IMG/VR virus record: IMGVR_UViG_2684622670_000020
Source of the DNA: a virus
Lineage: Duplodnaviria > Heunggongvirae > Uroviricota > Caudoviricetes
DNA: 7,698 nucleotides
Strand: one strand, 5' to 3'
The notes under the pieces are model-generated. The model had not been told where the DNA came from. It saw nothing but the letters and a program-made list of their open reading frames with translations, and ran no database searches. Below are positions 265 to 6,694 of this stretch, in pieces. Position 1 is the stretch's first letter; each line of letters begins with the position of its first letter. A program made the position numbers and the translations under genes.

Positions 265-573
265 TTAACGGATTCCGCTTATGAATAGTTTTGCTGGTAT
301 ACTGCATGCCTTGCGCTTTGTTGCGGTGCCGAAACCCGCCCGTGCGAAGTGATTTGTTTTTAAATCATATGGTTAGAGATATGAAACATACTGTAGAAGC
401 AAAAATTATTTTGTATTCATGCTGTTATGTGTTTGCGTTGGGTTCTGTATTTATTTTTTATAATCAATGAGATAAATTCATTTCTTGTTCGTGTGCTTTC
501 TCCTTTTTTGGTGGTCTAGTATCGAGTGGTGTATCACTTGGTATATCACTTTTGGAGGGGCTGGGGAGGATGC

Positions 574-1800
574 GTGGCTGGCACAAACAAACTGAGTGAT
601 AAAAAATTAAGATCGCTTCTCGGCGTAAAGCGGGATTCAGTAATTACCATTGCGGATGGTGAAGGATTAAGCATCAAAGTATCCATGATGGGATGCATTA
701 GTTGGGTTTTCTCTTATCGTCTTGGTGGGCGTGGGAGCAAGTTAGAGCGCATTGTTCTTGGGCGTTACCCTGACATGTCGTTGAAAATGGCCAGGGAGAA
801 GAGGGAACTATGCCGAAAATGGTATGCGGAAGGGCTGAATCCACGACTTGAATTAGAACTTAGCGCAGAAGAAAACCTTAACCCCGTAACTGTCCATGAT
901 GCCCTTGAATATTGGCTAATTCATTACGCAAGAAAAAAACGTAGTGACGAGGAACTGGTGCGGGCGCAATTACGTAAGCATATTTATCCGCGTCTTGGCC
1001 ACTATCCGTTATCCCGGTGTGAAACGCGTCACTGGGTGGCATGTTTTGATGAAATTAACCAGTCCAGGCCAATCACTGCCGGGCGAATGTTCCAGATTTG
1101 TAAACAGGCCTTAAGATTCTGCAAGGTTCGCCGTTATGCCTCATGTGATGCCCTGGCTTTTATGACAATCCAGGATGTAGGGCAACCATCGGGGCAGCGT
1201 GATAGGGTGCTGTCAGATAGTGAGTTAGCTGATGTATGGCGGTGTACTTATAGCGATGAACAGCAACTTTATTATCTTCGTCTGCTTAAGTTGCTTGTGC
1301 TGTTTGGGGCGCGAACAATGGAAGTAAGATTATCCCGGTGGAGTGAATGGGATTTTCAGTCATGGATTTGGACGGTTCCTAAAGAACACAGCAAAACTCG
1401 TGAAAAAATAGTTCGTCCAATTCCAGAGGGCATTCGCCCATGGATTGAGGATCTAAAAAAGGAAACGGGAAAAACAGGAATTGTACTGGGTGAAGAACGT
1501 TCCCGCCAGGCTGCTTCGCTTAAAGGGCGTAGGCTATACAAAGATTTTCATCATAATGAGCCATGGACGCTTCACGATTTGCGCAGAACATTTTCTACAG
1601 GTTTAAATAATATGGGTATTGCGCCACATATTGTAGAGCTTTTACTTGGTCATGCATTGCCGGGGGTGATGGCTATTTATAACCGTAGTCTGTACTTACC
1701 TGAGAAAATGGATGCGTTGAATAAGTGGTATGGCCGATTAGAACTTCTGGCGGGTAATCATCAAAATGTGGTGCTGTTACCTGTATCGAATAGAGGTTAA
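574..1800 (+). CDS. int: P4-family tyrosine site-specific integrase
   Basis: N-terminal arm-binding-type segment (NKLSDKKLRSLL...DGEGLSIKVS...WVFSYRLGG...LGRYPDMSLKMAREKR). C-terminal catalytic signature HDLRRTFST ... LLGH ... AIYNRS (His-x-x-Arg, His, Tyr nucleophile). The ORF track opens at GTG 526; I prefer GTG 574, which is in frame and sits 4 nt after a GGAGG Shine-Dalgarno at 565-569, giving M-AGTNKLSDKK. Confidence 0.88.
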   Translation: MAGTNKLSDKKLRSLLGVKRDSVITIADGEGLSIKVSMMGCISWVFSYRLGGRGSKLERIVLGRYPDMSLKMAREKRELCRKWYAEGLNPRLELELSAEENLNPVTVHDALEYWLIHYARKKRSDEELVRAQLRKHIYPRLGHYPLSRCETRHWVACFDEINQSRPITAGRMFQICKQALRFCKVRRYASCDALAFMTIQDVGQPSGQRDRVLSDSELADVWRCTYSDEQQLYYLRLLKLLVLFGARTMEVRLSRWSEWDFQSWIWTVPKEHSKTREKIVRPIPEGIRPWIEDLKKETGKTGIVLGEERSRQAASLKGRRLYKDFHHNEPWTLHDLRRTFSTGLNNMGIAPHIVELLLGHALPGVMAIYNRSLYLPEKMDALNKWYGRLELLAGNHQNVVLLPVSNRG

Positions 1801-2885: not shown

Positions 2886-2958
2886 TTACTACTGTATTTT
2901 AATCCAGTATTAAAGATTGCAAAATAGCCTCCGCAAGCATAGATACAGTGGAGGCAAT

Positions 2959-3243
2959 ATGACAAAAACTACATTCATTCCCCCAACTCCAGAACAACGC
3001 CGGGCGCTTCTTGAAGAATACGGTTTTGAATTTGATCGCCGTATCCGTGAAAAGGAATGCCAGGAAATCACCAGTCTGTCGCGCTCAACTCGCTTCAAAA
3101 TGGAAAATGAAGGGCGTTTCCCGCTTCGTTGTCATTTCGGGCGCAATAGCTGTGCGTGGCTTCTCTCTGATGTGCTTTGGTGGGTTCGTAACCCACCTGC
3201 TGTAGATAAAGTCAATAATCCGTACGGTAAGAAAGCTGCATAA
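2959..3243 (+). CDS. alpA: AlpA-family (phage/prophage) transcriptional regulator or excision activator, HTH
   Basis: The segment ITSLSRSTRFKMENEGRFPLRCHFGRNSCAWLLSDVLWWV fits the AlpA pattern (TGLSRSTIYRL..G.FP.P.K.G.R.V.W..SEV..WI). ATG at 2959 is preceded by GGAGG at 2950-2954. The ORF track opens at TTG 2917, which I consider less likely. The protein has an N-terminal extension relative to 70-aa AlpA. Confidence 0.7.
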   Translation: MTKTTFIPPTPEQRRALLEEYGFEFDRRIREKECQEITSLSRSTRFKMENEGRFPLRCHFGRNSCAWLLSDVLWWVRNPPAVDKVNNPYGKKAA

Positions 3244-4116: not shown

Positions 4117-4416
4117 ATGAAACAGAAAAATTCTGGCTTTACTGCCAGCGGCCTCCCTCGGCCTGAAATCTGCCCCGGCGATATTTACCGGGATAAATAC
4201 GGCAGCACGGTAATGATTAAAGGTGTTGCCGGACGGTGCGTTACTTACCGCCGTGAAGGTTATGAATATGACTGCGTGATGTCTGTTTATCAGTTCCGGC
4301 GTGATTTTTCTCTGGTACAGAACGCAACACGCGGTAAGCCCACCAGCAGGGAAAAAGCACGGGAAAATATTAAGAAAATAAAAAGCATGCTCAGCGCATC
4401 CAGAGGTAAAAAATGA
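4117..4416 (+). CDS. small hypothetical protein, 99 aa, basic C-terminus
   Basis: ATG 4117 with GGAGA upstream; its stop overlaps the rep start (ATGA at 4413-4416). No family recognised. Confidence 0.55.
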   Translation: MKQKNSGFTASGLPRPEICPGDIYRDKYGSTVMIKGVAGRCVTYRREGYEYDCVMSVYQFRRDFSLVQNATRGKPTSREKARENIKKIKSMLSASRGKK

Positions 4417-5819
4417 AACTGGCACCAAACGTAAAACTGTTACCGAAAGATAAACACACTGAGGCGGTTATTTTTGCGGGTGATAATGCTCACTCCTTTG
4501 CAGAACATTACATGATTGCACAGGCCAAAAAAGCAGGCGATCCCATCCCTCCGGTTTACCTGGGCCGTTATCAGTTAAGCGAACTGGACAATTTACAGAT
4601 TGTTGATGAAGGACGATACAGAGCAAAGGTCATACGCGCCGGAAACCTGGACGATATGCAGATGCTGACCATTGCCACAAAACTGGCGATCGCAGGTGTC
4701 CGGGAAGCGCGGTTACTTTCAGAGAATTTCGAACTACTGGAGGACTGGAGCGAGCAACTACCGCGCCTTAAAGAAACCTGGGAACGTGGGGAAAGCCTGG
4801 TCATGAATGGTGGAAAGCGAAAAATCACACTTCCCATCTCATGGGGTTCTGAGGGATTCGACGCGCAGCAAAGCTACGTAATTAAGGGGCTTATTCCGGC
4901 TGAATCATTATGCAGCACCTACGGCGCGAGTGGTTCCTATAAATCGTTCCTCGCTATCTCCTGGTCGTGCCATGTTGCCACAGGTATGGCATGGGGAGGC
5001 CGCAGGGTAAGTAAGGGCGCGGTTATCTATATCGCTGGCGAAGGCAGTATGGGCGTAAAACGCCGCGTTAAGGCGTGGGAGATAACCCACGACAAGGTGG
5101 TTACAGATTTGTGCATCATTAACGCGCCTGTTTTCCCCGCATCGCCTGACTATGTGGAGCAGGTTATCAGGACTGCCGGACTTGTTAAGAGCAGAACGGG
5201 CGAAAATGTGCGGCTGATTGTGATCGACACACTGGCCCGTTGCTTTGGTGGGAATGATGAAAATGATTCCCGCGATATGGGCGCATTTATCCAGGGGTGT
5301 GACGCGATAAAGCAGGCCACAGGGGCCACGGTGCTGGTGGTTCACCATTCCGGCAAGGATGAAACAAAGGGGGCGCGTGGTTCCAGCGCATTCCGTGCCG
5401 CGCTTGATGCAGAGTACCGAATCAGCCGGGAAAATTCAGACGTTACAGCACTGGTGGCGGCGTGTACGAAGATGAAGGACGCAGAGGAGCCAAAAGAAAG
5501 CGCATACGACCTTAAAAGCGTGGAGGTGTTTACCGATACAGATGGCGAAGAGATTGTGTCTATGGTGGTGATTGACGTTCCCCGCGCCCCTGCTGAACTG
5601 GAGCGCATAGAGGAGGCCGGGAACAAGACGGAAAATCACGCCGCATTATGGCAGTGCATCAGAACACGGGCAGCACACAAAGAGCCATGCACTATCGCCC
5701 TGCTACGCGACGATATGAAAAAGCTGGGGTATGAGATGAAGCACTTCCGGCGCTGGCTGTACAAGCTGGAAAATGATGGCGTAATCGTTATTGACGGTGA
5801 TGACGTGCGCCCACTGTAA
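4413..5819 (+). CDS. RepA-like (AAA_25 / DnaB-like RecA-fold) replication ATPase-helicase of the island
   Basis: P-loop-like GASGSYKS, Walker-B-like LIVIDTLARCFGGNDENDS and VLVVHHSGKD, which is the motif order of RepA/AAA_25 replicative ATPases. About 90 C-terminal residues look like a separate possible DNA-binding domain. An iteron array lies immediately downstream. Confidence 0.75.
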   Translation: MKLAPNVKLLPKDKHTEAVIFAGDNAHSFAEHYMIAQAKKAGDPIPPVYLGRYQLSELDNLQIVDEGRYRAKVIRAGNLDDMQMLTIATKLAIAGVREARLLSENFELLEDWSEQLPRLKETWERGESLVMNGGKRKITLPISWGSEGFDAQQSYVIKGLIPAESLCSTYGASGSYKSFLAISWSCHVATGMAWGGRRVSKGAVIYIAGEGSMGVKRRVKAWEITHDKVVTDLCIINAPVFPASPDYVEQVIRTAGLVKSRTGENVRLIVIDTLARCFGGNDENDSRDMGAFIQGCDAIKQATGATVLVVHHSGKDETKGARGSSAFRAALDAEYRISRENSDVTALVAACTKMKDAEEPKESAYDLKSVEVFTDTDGEEIVSMVVIDVPRAPAELERIEEAGNKTENHAALWQCIRTRAAHKEPCTIALLRDDMKKLGYEMKHFRRWLYKLENDGVIVIDGDDVRPL

Positions 5820-5820
5820 A

Positions 5821-6022
5821 AAGTGGGGAGTAAAAGTGGGGAGTATGGGGAATTTAACAAAATTGAAACACTATTCCCCACTTTTCGACCTGTATACATC
5901 CAAAAAAGTGGGGAGTAAAAAACACAATGAAAAACAAAGCATTAGATTCACCCAAAAAACGAGATGGGGAGCAAGTGGGGAATTTAAAAAGTGGGGAGCA
6001 AAAGTGGGGAGTGGTGGGGAAT
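5821..6022. repeat. iteron array, putative origin of replication of the island
   Basis: Ten copies of the core (G/A)TGGGGA: direct at 5823, 5836, 5845, 5908, 5964, 5975, 5991, 6004 and 6014, and inverted at 5875-5881. They form two clusters (5823-5851 and 5964-6020) flanking an AT-rich stretch, immediately 3' of rep. Confidence 0.6.
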
Positions 6023-6272
6023 GACCAGAAAAACCAGAGATAAGACAGCGCCAAAATATAAAGCATTAGACATGACAGAGCACGCCTTAAAGGTGGCAAT
6101 CAGAACGATAGACCGCCATGCCGGGGAAGGATACGCGAAAGCACATCCCGAACTGATAAGCGCATTCATGACCACGGCGGCGGCAAACTTTGCCACGCTG
6201 ACTGAGCGGGAAATTGCGGAAGCGGAACAGGTGACAACCATCAACGTTAAAACCGGAGAGGTGACAGCATGA
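6021..6272 (+). CDS. small hypothetical protein, about 83 aa
   Basis: ATG 6021 lies 9 nt after GGGAG inside the last iteron; the ORF track opens at GTG 5991, within the repeats. Its stop overlaps the ssb start (ATGA at 6269-6272). No family recognised. Confidence 0.5.
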   Translation: MTRKTRDKTAPKYKALDMTEHALKVAIRTIDRHAGEGYAKAHPELISAFMTTAAANFATLTEREIAEAEQVTTINVKTGEVTA

Positions 6273-6694
6273 CAGCACAGATAGCGGCTTACGGGCGGCT
6301 GGTGGCTGACCCGCAGTTAAAAACCACCAGCAAGGGAACACAAATGGCGATGGCGAGTATGGCGGTTTCCCTGCCGTGCAGCCAGGCCGATGACGGAACG
6401 GCGACGATGTGGTTATCCGTTCTGGCGTTTGGCAGACAGGCCGATGCACTGGCCAGGCACCACAAAGGCGAACTGGTGAGCGTGGCGGGTAACATGCAGG
6501 TAAGCCAGTGGACAGGCCAGAACGGCGAAACGCGGCAGGGCTGGCAGGTCATCGCAGACAGTGTAATCAGTGCGCGAACGGCGCGACCGGGCGGCAAAAA
6601 AGGTCAACAGGGCCAGGCCACTGACGCACTGAACAGGGCAAAACAACAGACAGGCCAGCACGATGACCCGTACGGGGACGGGATACCGTTTTAA
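6269..6694 (+). CDS. ssb: single-stranded DNA-binding protein (SSB)
   Basis: OB-fold pattern aligns by eye to E. coli SSB (MWLSVLAFGRQAD vs EWHRVVLFGKLAE; KGELVSVAGNMQVSQWTGQNGETRQGW vs [27 protein letters not shown]). Gly/Gln-rich linker, and acidic C-terminal tail DDPYGDGIPF ending in the SSB hallmark IPF. Confidence 0.85.
   Translation: MTAQIAAYGRLVADPQLKTTSKGTQMAMASMAVSLPCSQADDGTATMWLSVLAFGRQADALARHHKGELVSVAGNMQVSQWTGQNGETRQGWQVIADSVISARTARPGGKKGQQGQATDALNRAKQQTGQHDDPYGDGIPF

Follow-up and report, generated by a model that had tools for sequence, protein, structure and literature searches.

A probable iteron-type replication origin immediately 3' of rep in an Escherichia coli PICI

The available part of the study by Fillol-Salom et al. 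(2018; PMC6092414) places the origins of Gram-negative phage-inducible chromosomal islands (PICIs) immediately 3' of rep, where two sets of iterons flank an AT-rich region, and states that these islands possess several Rep alleles, each with its own iterons. According to the same part of the text, the rep-ori segment of EcCICFT073 kept a plasmid at the restrictive temperature and a rep mutant did not; a construct with a deletion of ori was compared as well. In the origins of SaPIs, 6-12 iterons of 5-7 bp follow directly after rep, with a central AT-rich region, and the SaPI Reps, which load themselves, read these iterons via a winged helix at the C-terminus (Qiao et al., 2022; PMC9371898).

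The window analyzed here, a stretch of 7,698 nucleotides whose features are collected in Table 1, covers the left half of an E. coli PICI whose insertion site is flanked by gcd and hpt, as judged by comparison with complete E. coli genomes; bases 1-216 of the window are the 3' end of gcd. In L001, a 97%-identical relative of the window island, the gcd-hpt insertion measures about 15 kb, and beyond the part that corresponds to the window it carries genes for capsid, protease, portal, connector, HNH, TerS and TerL. The packaging genes of the island itself are located beyond the right edge of the window and are read from this relative. Given its capsid, portal and terminase module, this closest relative is a capsid-forming PICI, and its gene set is the one reported for islands of this type (bioRxiv 10.1101/2022.09.08.507074). 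The main open reading frames of the window are all oriented rightward, in the order int, alpA, DUF4222, rep, the gene for an 83-aa protein, ssb, proQ/finO and perC. A one-way succession of int, alpA and rep, a specific attachment site, a size in the range of about 10-18 kb and a packaging module (read in L001) that comes without lysis or tail genes place the island among the PICIs. A match to the Rfam int-alpA RNA motif (RF02996; positions 1809-1875, + strand; E=1.3e-9) is located in the interval that separates the integrase gene from the open reading frame after it; it scores 55.2 bits, the gathering score being 35.8.

On the basis of sequence comparisons and of the computational analysis reported below, the 201-bp gap that follows rep is very probably the vegetative replication origin of this PICI.

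Table 1. Genes and proposed origin elements; positions are those of the window.
Feature	Position	Strand	Remarks
Tyrosine integrase	526-1800	+	
AlpA regulator	2917-3243	+	
DUF4222 protein	4117-4416	+	
rep, 468-aa predicted initiator-helicase	4413-5819	+	Pfam AAA_25, 3.3e-43; match to PDB 1g8y; AF2 models
Predicted Rep winged-helix coding region	5598-5816	+	residues 396-468; recognition helix 445-454
Left iteron triplet	5823-5851	+	starts: GTGGGGA 5823, GTGGGGA 5836, ATGGGGA 5845
AT-rich spacer 1	5852-5874		about 20% GC in 20-bp windows
Central divergent iteron pair	5875-5914		inverted copy 5875-5881 (-), direct copy 5908-5914 (+)
AT-rich spacer 2	5915-5963		20-40% GC in 20-bp windows, lowest at left end
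Right iteron cluster	5964-6020	+	starts: ATGGGGA 5964; GTGGGGA 5975, 5991, 6004, 6014
83-aa protein, function unassigned	6021-6272	+	phrog_1231, match over residues 1-82 from ATG 6021
ssb, island single-stranded DNA-binding protein	6269-6694	+	PF00436, 4e-16
ProQ/FinO protein	6731-7267	+	PF04352
PerC	7264-7545	+	

The repeat array between rep and the next gene

A preliminary description of this DNA had counted ten copies of (G/A)TGGGGA in about 200 bp and had seen in them two clusters around an AT-rich centre that includes one inverted copy. Our count is the same, as ten copies are present within 198 bp (5823-6020), nine of them on the + strand and a single one on the - strand. The entire window contains 15 RTGGGGA copies, against a mean of 2.02 (sd 1.43, maximum 7) in 200 dinucleotide-preserving shuffles, none of which (0/200) reached 15; the five copies outside the array are spread over the remaining ~7,500 bp, and a second iteron cluster was not found elsewhere in the window. 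The repeats occupy the whole 201-bp gap that opens after the rep stop codon (TAA 5817-5819) and closes at the next start codon (ATG, 6021), with the first iteron at 5823 and hence immediately 3' of rep. With its flanks, the iteron consensus reads aAAA-GTGGGGA-(G/A)T, in which the core comprises 7 bp.

The number of ten cores falls within the 6-12 copies that characterize SaPI origins, and the cores are arranged as three copies, a central pair and five copies. The layout is somewhat more structured than two clusters around an AT-rich centre: a triplet, a pair, a doublet (5964-5981) and a second triplet (5991-6020) follow each other, with one AT-rich spacer on either side of the pair. The left and right triplets are 46-nt direct repeats of one another with 80% identity. 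The divergent pair is symmetric about a conserved CCTGTATACAT at 5889-5899 (GTATAC at 5892-5897), and it forms an imperfect palindrome. Spacer 5915-5963, the longest iteron-free stretch of the array, is a candidate for the unwinding region. The SaPI-like layout that had been proposed from the first reading of these letters holds in so far as two sets of iterons surround an AT-rich region 3' of rep; it does not extend to iterons opposed on each side, because nine of the ten copies are co-oriented and only that at 5875-5881 is inverted, a pattern that recurs in most related loci.

Neither a DnaA box (TTWTNCACA) nor an IHF consensus nor a GATC site was found in 5781-6060. Among five origins of the GTGGGGA type, variable columns amount to 16/70 in iterons and 33/131 in spacers (p=0.86), so that the iterons are no better conserved than the DNA between them; purifying selection on individual copies does not show in this comparison. 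A 17-nt direct repeat with 88% identity is formed by AAAAACAAAGCATTAGA and AAATATAAAGCATTAGA at 5930-5946 and 6054-6070; its right copy belongs to the 83-aa gene, where it encodes KYKALD close to the beginning of the protein, and its left copy is found in the right AT-rich spacer, just past an ATG. This suggests that the right iteron cluster was born of a duplication that took in the start of the 83-aa gene.

The layout recurs across genera. Most loci show, in this order, one to four direct copies, one inverted copy, a direct copy, a gap, and two to five further direct copies. The inverted copy is positioned about 43-58 bp past the rep stop codon and its direct partner 29-31 bp further on, and the iteron-free gap of about 55-60 bp that follows the divergent pair is conserved in related loci. 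At least five iterons are present after rep in 61 of 85 loci, with a median of seven copies in the 230 bp after rep as opposed to 1.2 copies per kb in the rest of the loci. Both the in-register divergent pair and the central CCTGTATA motif are kept in alleles with different iterons. In two loci in which a 257-aa gene comes next (L090, 1925-2130; L092, 2830-3030), about 200 bp of extra DNA lie beyond the main array, and this stretch contains another divergent pair of iterons, centred on GTATATATA, along with a few more iterons.

A search of plasmid and phage collections for an autonomous plasmid with the exact rep-ori of the window returned none; the nearest is a circularized Klebsiella PICI. 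This 16,971-bp circular 'plasmid' of Klebsiella pneumoniae (CP018459.1) encodes a Rep of the window's family and carries GTGCGGC iterons. It is in fact the circular form of a capsid-forming PICI and has genes for integrase, capsid and terminase besides rep, along with one annotated as a tape-measure gene. As a sign of autonomous rep-ori replication, this circle is suggestive only.

Joint change of Rep and its iterons

The 468-aa Rep protein can be divided into an N-terminal alpha/beta domain (residues 1-~135), a RecA-fold AAA_25 core (~138-395) and a C-terminal winged helix (396-468). The helicase core matches RSF1010 RepA (PDB 1g8y) with E=4e-5 over residues 155-320. Database entries that are 100% identical to Rep carry the title 'helicase RepA family protein', and related alleles are each found in more than 1,000 contigs. 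In the AF2 model of residues 396-468 (mean pLDDT 89), the topology is H-H-H-beta-hairpin, and the best Foldseek matches of this domain are all winged-helix DNA-binding domains with TM values of 0.6-0.68, among them those of HrcA, DNA-bound LexA, SelB, ArsR, DtxR, Fur and MCM8. Their E-values are weak (0.05-0.2) as a result of the small size of the domain, and the assignment as a winged helix therefore rests on the topology and on the agreement among the matches. In the same domain model, residue 444, a His encoded at 5742-5744, caps the N-terminus of helix 3, the helix that usually serves for recognition.

The full-length model is confident for the N-terminal alpha/beta and C-terminal domains only; the helicase core is modeled with low confidence (mean pLDDT 65), and Foldseek searches with the full-length model returned only generic RecA-fold and spurious matches. 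Pfam searches assigned no family to the isolated N-terminal or C-terminal domain, and they recognized no primase domain in the whole protein or in its single domains. The N-terminal domain (residues 1-135, encoded at 4413-4817) is modeled as an alpha/beta fold with a pLDDT of about 80-93, and it occurs in two versions of only about 43% identity, whose shuffling is independent of that of the other two modules.

In those E. coli alleles of the RepA type whose downstream gene is intact, 200-201 bp separate the end of rep from the start codon that follows, and the iterons stay in register; L009 departs from this spacing, and there the next gene is a pseudogene. All iteron copies of a given allele switch together, which yields three types: GTGGGGA (the window, L001, L003, L005 and L006), GTGAGGR (L004, L007 and L008, with O157:H7 included) and GTGAGTA (L009). 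Rep itself is a mosaic of three independently shuffled modules, and the iteron type goes along with the C-terminal module alone. L003 and L004 share 97% identity in the N domain and 98% in the helicase and differ in their iterons, with 84% identity in the C domain; the window and L005, which are only 43% and 68% identical in the N domain and the helicase, have C domains with 95% identity and the same iteron.

In strain ATCC 43886 (L002), backbone and insertion site of the island are the same, but the Rep is of the primase type. There, the gap after rep contains about 13 unrelated repeats, GGTGAACAG/CTGTTCACC, in both orientations around AT-rich DNA (L002 16590-16830). Rep and repeats have consequently been swapped as a single unit.

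We traced the association between protein and DNA to a single position by a survey of about 85 loci from Enterobacterales and two marine gammaproteobacterial (Oceanospirillales-type) genomes, in which GTG-N-G[GT] copies in the 260 bp after rep were scored against the residue preceding the F-x-R-W-L motif. Position 4 of the iteron was G in 109/117 copies where residue 444 is His and in 121/135 where it is Lys, A in 211/219 copies where it is Asn, and C in 37/38 where it is Ser; these are raw counts from related sequences, given without phylogenetic correction. Five additional alleles were picked on their protein sequence alone, and the iterons predicted blindly from them matched in 5/5 cases: two His alleles possess GTGGG-type iterons and three Asn alleles possess GTGAGG. 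Pairs of closely similar winged helices narrow the association further. L003 and L090 differ by H444N, N454S, V459A and D464Y, and L006 and L092 by H444N and G462D, which leaves H444N as the sole winged-helix change common to both pairs.

Could the repeats instead bind another protein of the island, be it DUF4222, AlpA or the small terminase (which would make the array a packaging site)? The DUF4222 gene always precedes rep and overlaps it in an ATGA (4413-4416), and the AGRC/EERR motif of its product partly follows the iteron type. Yet rep-ori modules of this Rep family are also found with other downstream genes, for instance with only a small terminase gene in L005, and some of these loci are devoid of packaging genes within reach; ATCC 43886, for its part, shares the gene order and the packaging module of L001 and nevertheless carries unrelated repeats. 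Residue 444 of Rep, in contrast, fitted the iteron type in every allele examined, the blind set included. We regard binding by another island protein as highly unlikely. When considered as a candidate in its own right, DUF4222 was rejected, since L009 combines the AGRC form with GTGAGTA iterons and L002 an EERR-like form with entirely different repeats.

Comparison across alleles marks the ten AAAGTGGGGA repeats of the window as the cognate recognition sites of the C-terminal winged helix of Rep, and it ties His444, just before the recognition helix, to base 4 of the iteron, an association that holds over about 90 related loci. On comparative evidence, Rep answers to the description of a helicase whose predicted C-terminal winged helix sets iteron specificity. 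The proposal that an iteron-type origin of the SaPI/PICI layout is situated directly 3' of rep finds support in the identity of the element as a PICI, the covariation of Rep and iterons, the module swap, the layout shared across genera and the literature.

The array and expression of the downstream gene

As had been noted before, the array overlaps the ribosome-binding region of the next gene; the overlap involves the last two iterons. The probable Shine-Dalgarno sequence of the 83-aa gene, GGAG at 6008-6011, is part of the penultimate iteron, and 9 nt separate it from the ATG at 6021. Among the alleles examined, those with GTGGGGA, GTGAGG or GTGGGN iterons have their next start codon 0-11 nt past the last iteron, whatever gene comes next. 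Pfam matches (Table 1) bear out the ssb/finO block that had been recognized farther downstream. ATGA stop-start overlaps are present between DUF4222 and rep (4413-4416) and between the 83-aa gene and ssb (6269-6272), and they point to translational coupling inside the replication operon. No promoter-like (sigma-70) site and no + strand terminator was found in 5600-6300, which makes it probable that the genes 3' of rep, and ssb with them, are co-transcribed with rep.

This arrangement invites a reading in which the repeats are Rep sites that serve mainly for control, as a roadblock or as a handcuffing/copy-number array in the rep-ssb operon, with the true start of replication elsewhere. The location of the array inside a transcription unit, the overlap of the last iterons with the Shine-Dalgarno region of the next gene and the short distance to its start codon all speak for it. 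The ribosome-binding site is, however, separate from the last repeat in both the GTGCGGC lineage and the primase-type module. AT-rich spacers, a divergent pair and a fixed geometry are, furthermore, features of an origin, and they are conserved across genera; the window is without any other iteron cluster; and for the tested E. coli PICI, constructs with and without the ori region were compared for plasmid maintenance, as the available text of PMC6092414 relates. Taken together, we judge a mainly regulatory array with a start elsewhere to be improbable.

The more specific suggestion that binding of Rep could couple replication to the expression of the ssb/finO block is left without support, as the overlap is positional and is absent from the GTGCGGC lineage and from the primase-type module. 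A ribosome-binding site works in the mRNA and Rep would bind duplex DNA, so that coupling could occur only in the form of a transcriptional roadblock. A simpler reading is that purine-rich iterons resemble a Shine-Dalgarno sequence by chance in a compact module whose recombination boundary is at the start codon.

The repeats might also act as RNA or protein, namely as a Shine-Dalgarno-like run, as the coding sequence of a small repeat protein (77-aa open reading frame, 5791-6024) or as a long-range hairpin that masks the ribosome-binding site. GGGGA and GAGGA are indeed similar to Shine-Dalgarno cores, and the open reading frame covers the whole gap and ends in an ATGA that overlaps the next start codon. 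In addition, the segments with the single, C-rich inverted copy (5869-5885) and with the penultimate iteron (6000-6016) are 88% complementary over 17 nt, and the predicted mRNA fold pairs these two segments with a z-score of -3.8. But GTGCGGC and GTGAGTA iterons do not resemble a Shine-Dalgarno sequence and have the same architecture, the covariation partner of the repeats is the DNA-binding helix of Rep, an Rfam search of the gap returned no family, and any array with one inverted copy folds in a like manner. A role as RNA or protein is accordingly very improbable in our estimation, and the pairing of 5869-5885 with 6000-6016 may be a by-product of the repeat layout. This pairing looks weaker in GTGAGG alleles. 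The 77-aa open reading frame was rejected, since stop codons break it up in GTGAGG as well as in GTGAGTA alleles.

Proposed initiation and comparison with known replicons

With the gap after rep taken as the replication origin, the following course of events can be envisaged. According to the SaPI/PICI model and to homology, a helper phage would turn on the alpA-controlled operon, and Rep would be made. The winged helices of Rep would bind to the iteron arrays on both sides and to the divergent pair in the middle, and the AT-rich spacers at 5852-5874 and 5915-5963 would melt. The RecA-fold core, which is similar to that of RSF1010 RepA, might then self-load as hexamers on the opened strands without a separate loader. 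The island SSB, encoded just downstream, would coat the single strands, and host primase and polymerase would copy the excised circle.

More tentatively, and with a likelihood that we put somewhat below an even chance, the Rep family may consist of RecA-fold (superfamily 4-like) helicases that have independently acquired a self-loading design of the SaPI type, with one-residue specificity and back-to-back loading. If this is true, a single N-cap residue would largely set the specificity of the origin, with His or Lys reading G, Asn reading A and Ser reading C; the replicon specificity groups of PICIs across Enterobacterales would become readable from sequence and could be re-programmed by point mutation; and two hexamers would load back to back at the divergent pair, whose copies lie 29-31 bp apart around CCTGTATAC.

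Physiologically, the array would mark the site at which the satellite starts copying after helper induction, and the comparison points to the domain that recognizes this site. The practical gain is that the C-terminal domain of Rep and the iterons travel as one exchangeable module whose iteron variant can be predicted from one residue. Possible applications are the sorting of the very common PICIs of E. coli and Enterobacterales into replicon specificity groups, the prediction of which satellites can coexist or cross-activate, and the design of orthogonal rep-ori pairs.

In the IncQ system, iteron binding by RepC and priming by RepB are assigned to two distinct proteins, and one iteron is about 20 bp long. 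The helicase core of Rep is homologous to RSF1010 RepA; in the window, however, helicase and iteron binder form one protein, and the iteron core comprises 7 bp. No member of the RepB or RepC families was found among the proteins of the window, which sets its replicon apart from the IncQ type. With classical iteron plasmids (oriV of the RepE, pi or TrfA type), the locus shares direct repeats, a winged-helix initiator and an adjoining AT-rich unwinding element. Their iterons are 17-22 bp in length, as opposed to the 7-bp core found here, where the initiator itself is the helicase; Rep matches AAA_25 only, and neither a Rep_3-type initiator nor a DnaA box or IHF site was found, so that the features of a classical oriV are not assembled at this locus.

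Like the window Rep, the alpha protein of P4 is the multifunctional replication protein of an E. coli satellite and has a C-terminal domain that reads short repeats. P4 employs an ori together with a distant crr, whereas the window has one origin region that adjoins rep; moreover, the window Rep is without a primase domain and belongs to a different helicase class. The repeats that follow the primase-type rep of ATCC 43886 contain TGTTCACC, an octamer that we take to be the type I iteron bound by P4 alpha protein, and this sister module would on that account be P4-like.

SaPI Rep and PriRep resemble the window Rep in that initiator and helicase are combined in one protein with a C-terminal winged helix and without a known loader. 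The SaPI Reps are superfamily 3 AAA+ helicases, whereas the window Rep possesses a RecA-fold AAA_25 core related to RSF1010 RepA; the likeness is thus one of architecture and not of descent of the motor. The origins differ as well, since SaPI iterons are opposed on each side and nine of the ten iterons of the window point in one direction.

The island resembles the Gram-negative PICIs (EcCICFT073 and others) most closely, as it shares with them the rightward int, alpA and rep genes and an origin immediately 3' of rep. Membership of the tested EcCICFT073 replicon in the window's Rep family is not confirmed: the available parts of PMC6092414 and its supplements give no iteron sequences as text, two 45-kb stretches of CFT073 contained a lambdoid prophage and core genes instead of the PICI, and a cluster look-up returned none of that study's accession numbers. 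The Pri-Rep proteins of EcCICFT073 and EcCIRM13514 carry the accessions AAN79964 and AHG11293. The available text of that study does not describe the three-module mosaic of Rep, the conserved divergent pair or the link between residue 444 and the fourth iteron position. The origin is of the kind already published for SaPIs and Gram-negative PICIs, carried here by a common E. coli island, and the RecA-fold motor in place of the superfamily 3 motor of SaPIs, together with the single residue that tracks iteron identity, are modest extensions beyond the available texts on PICIs.
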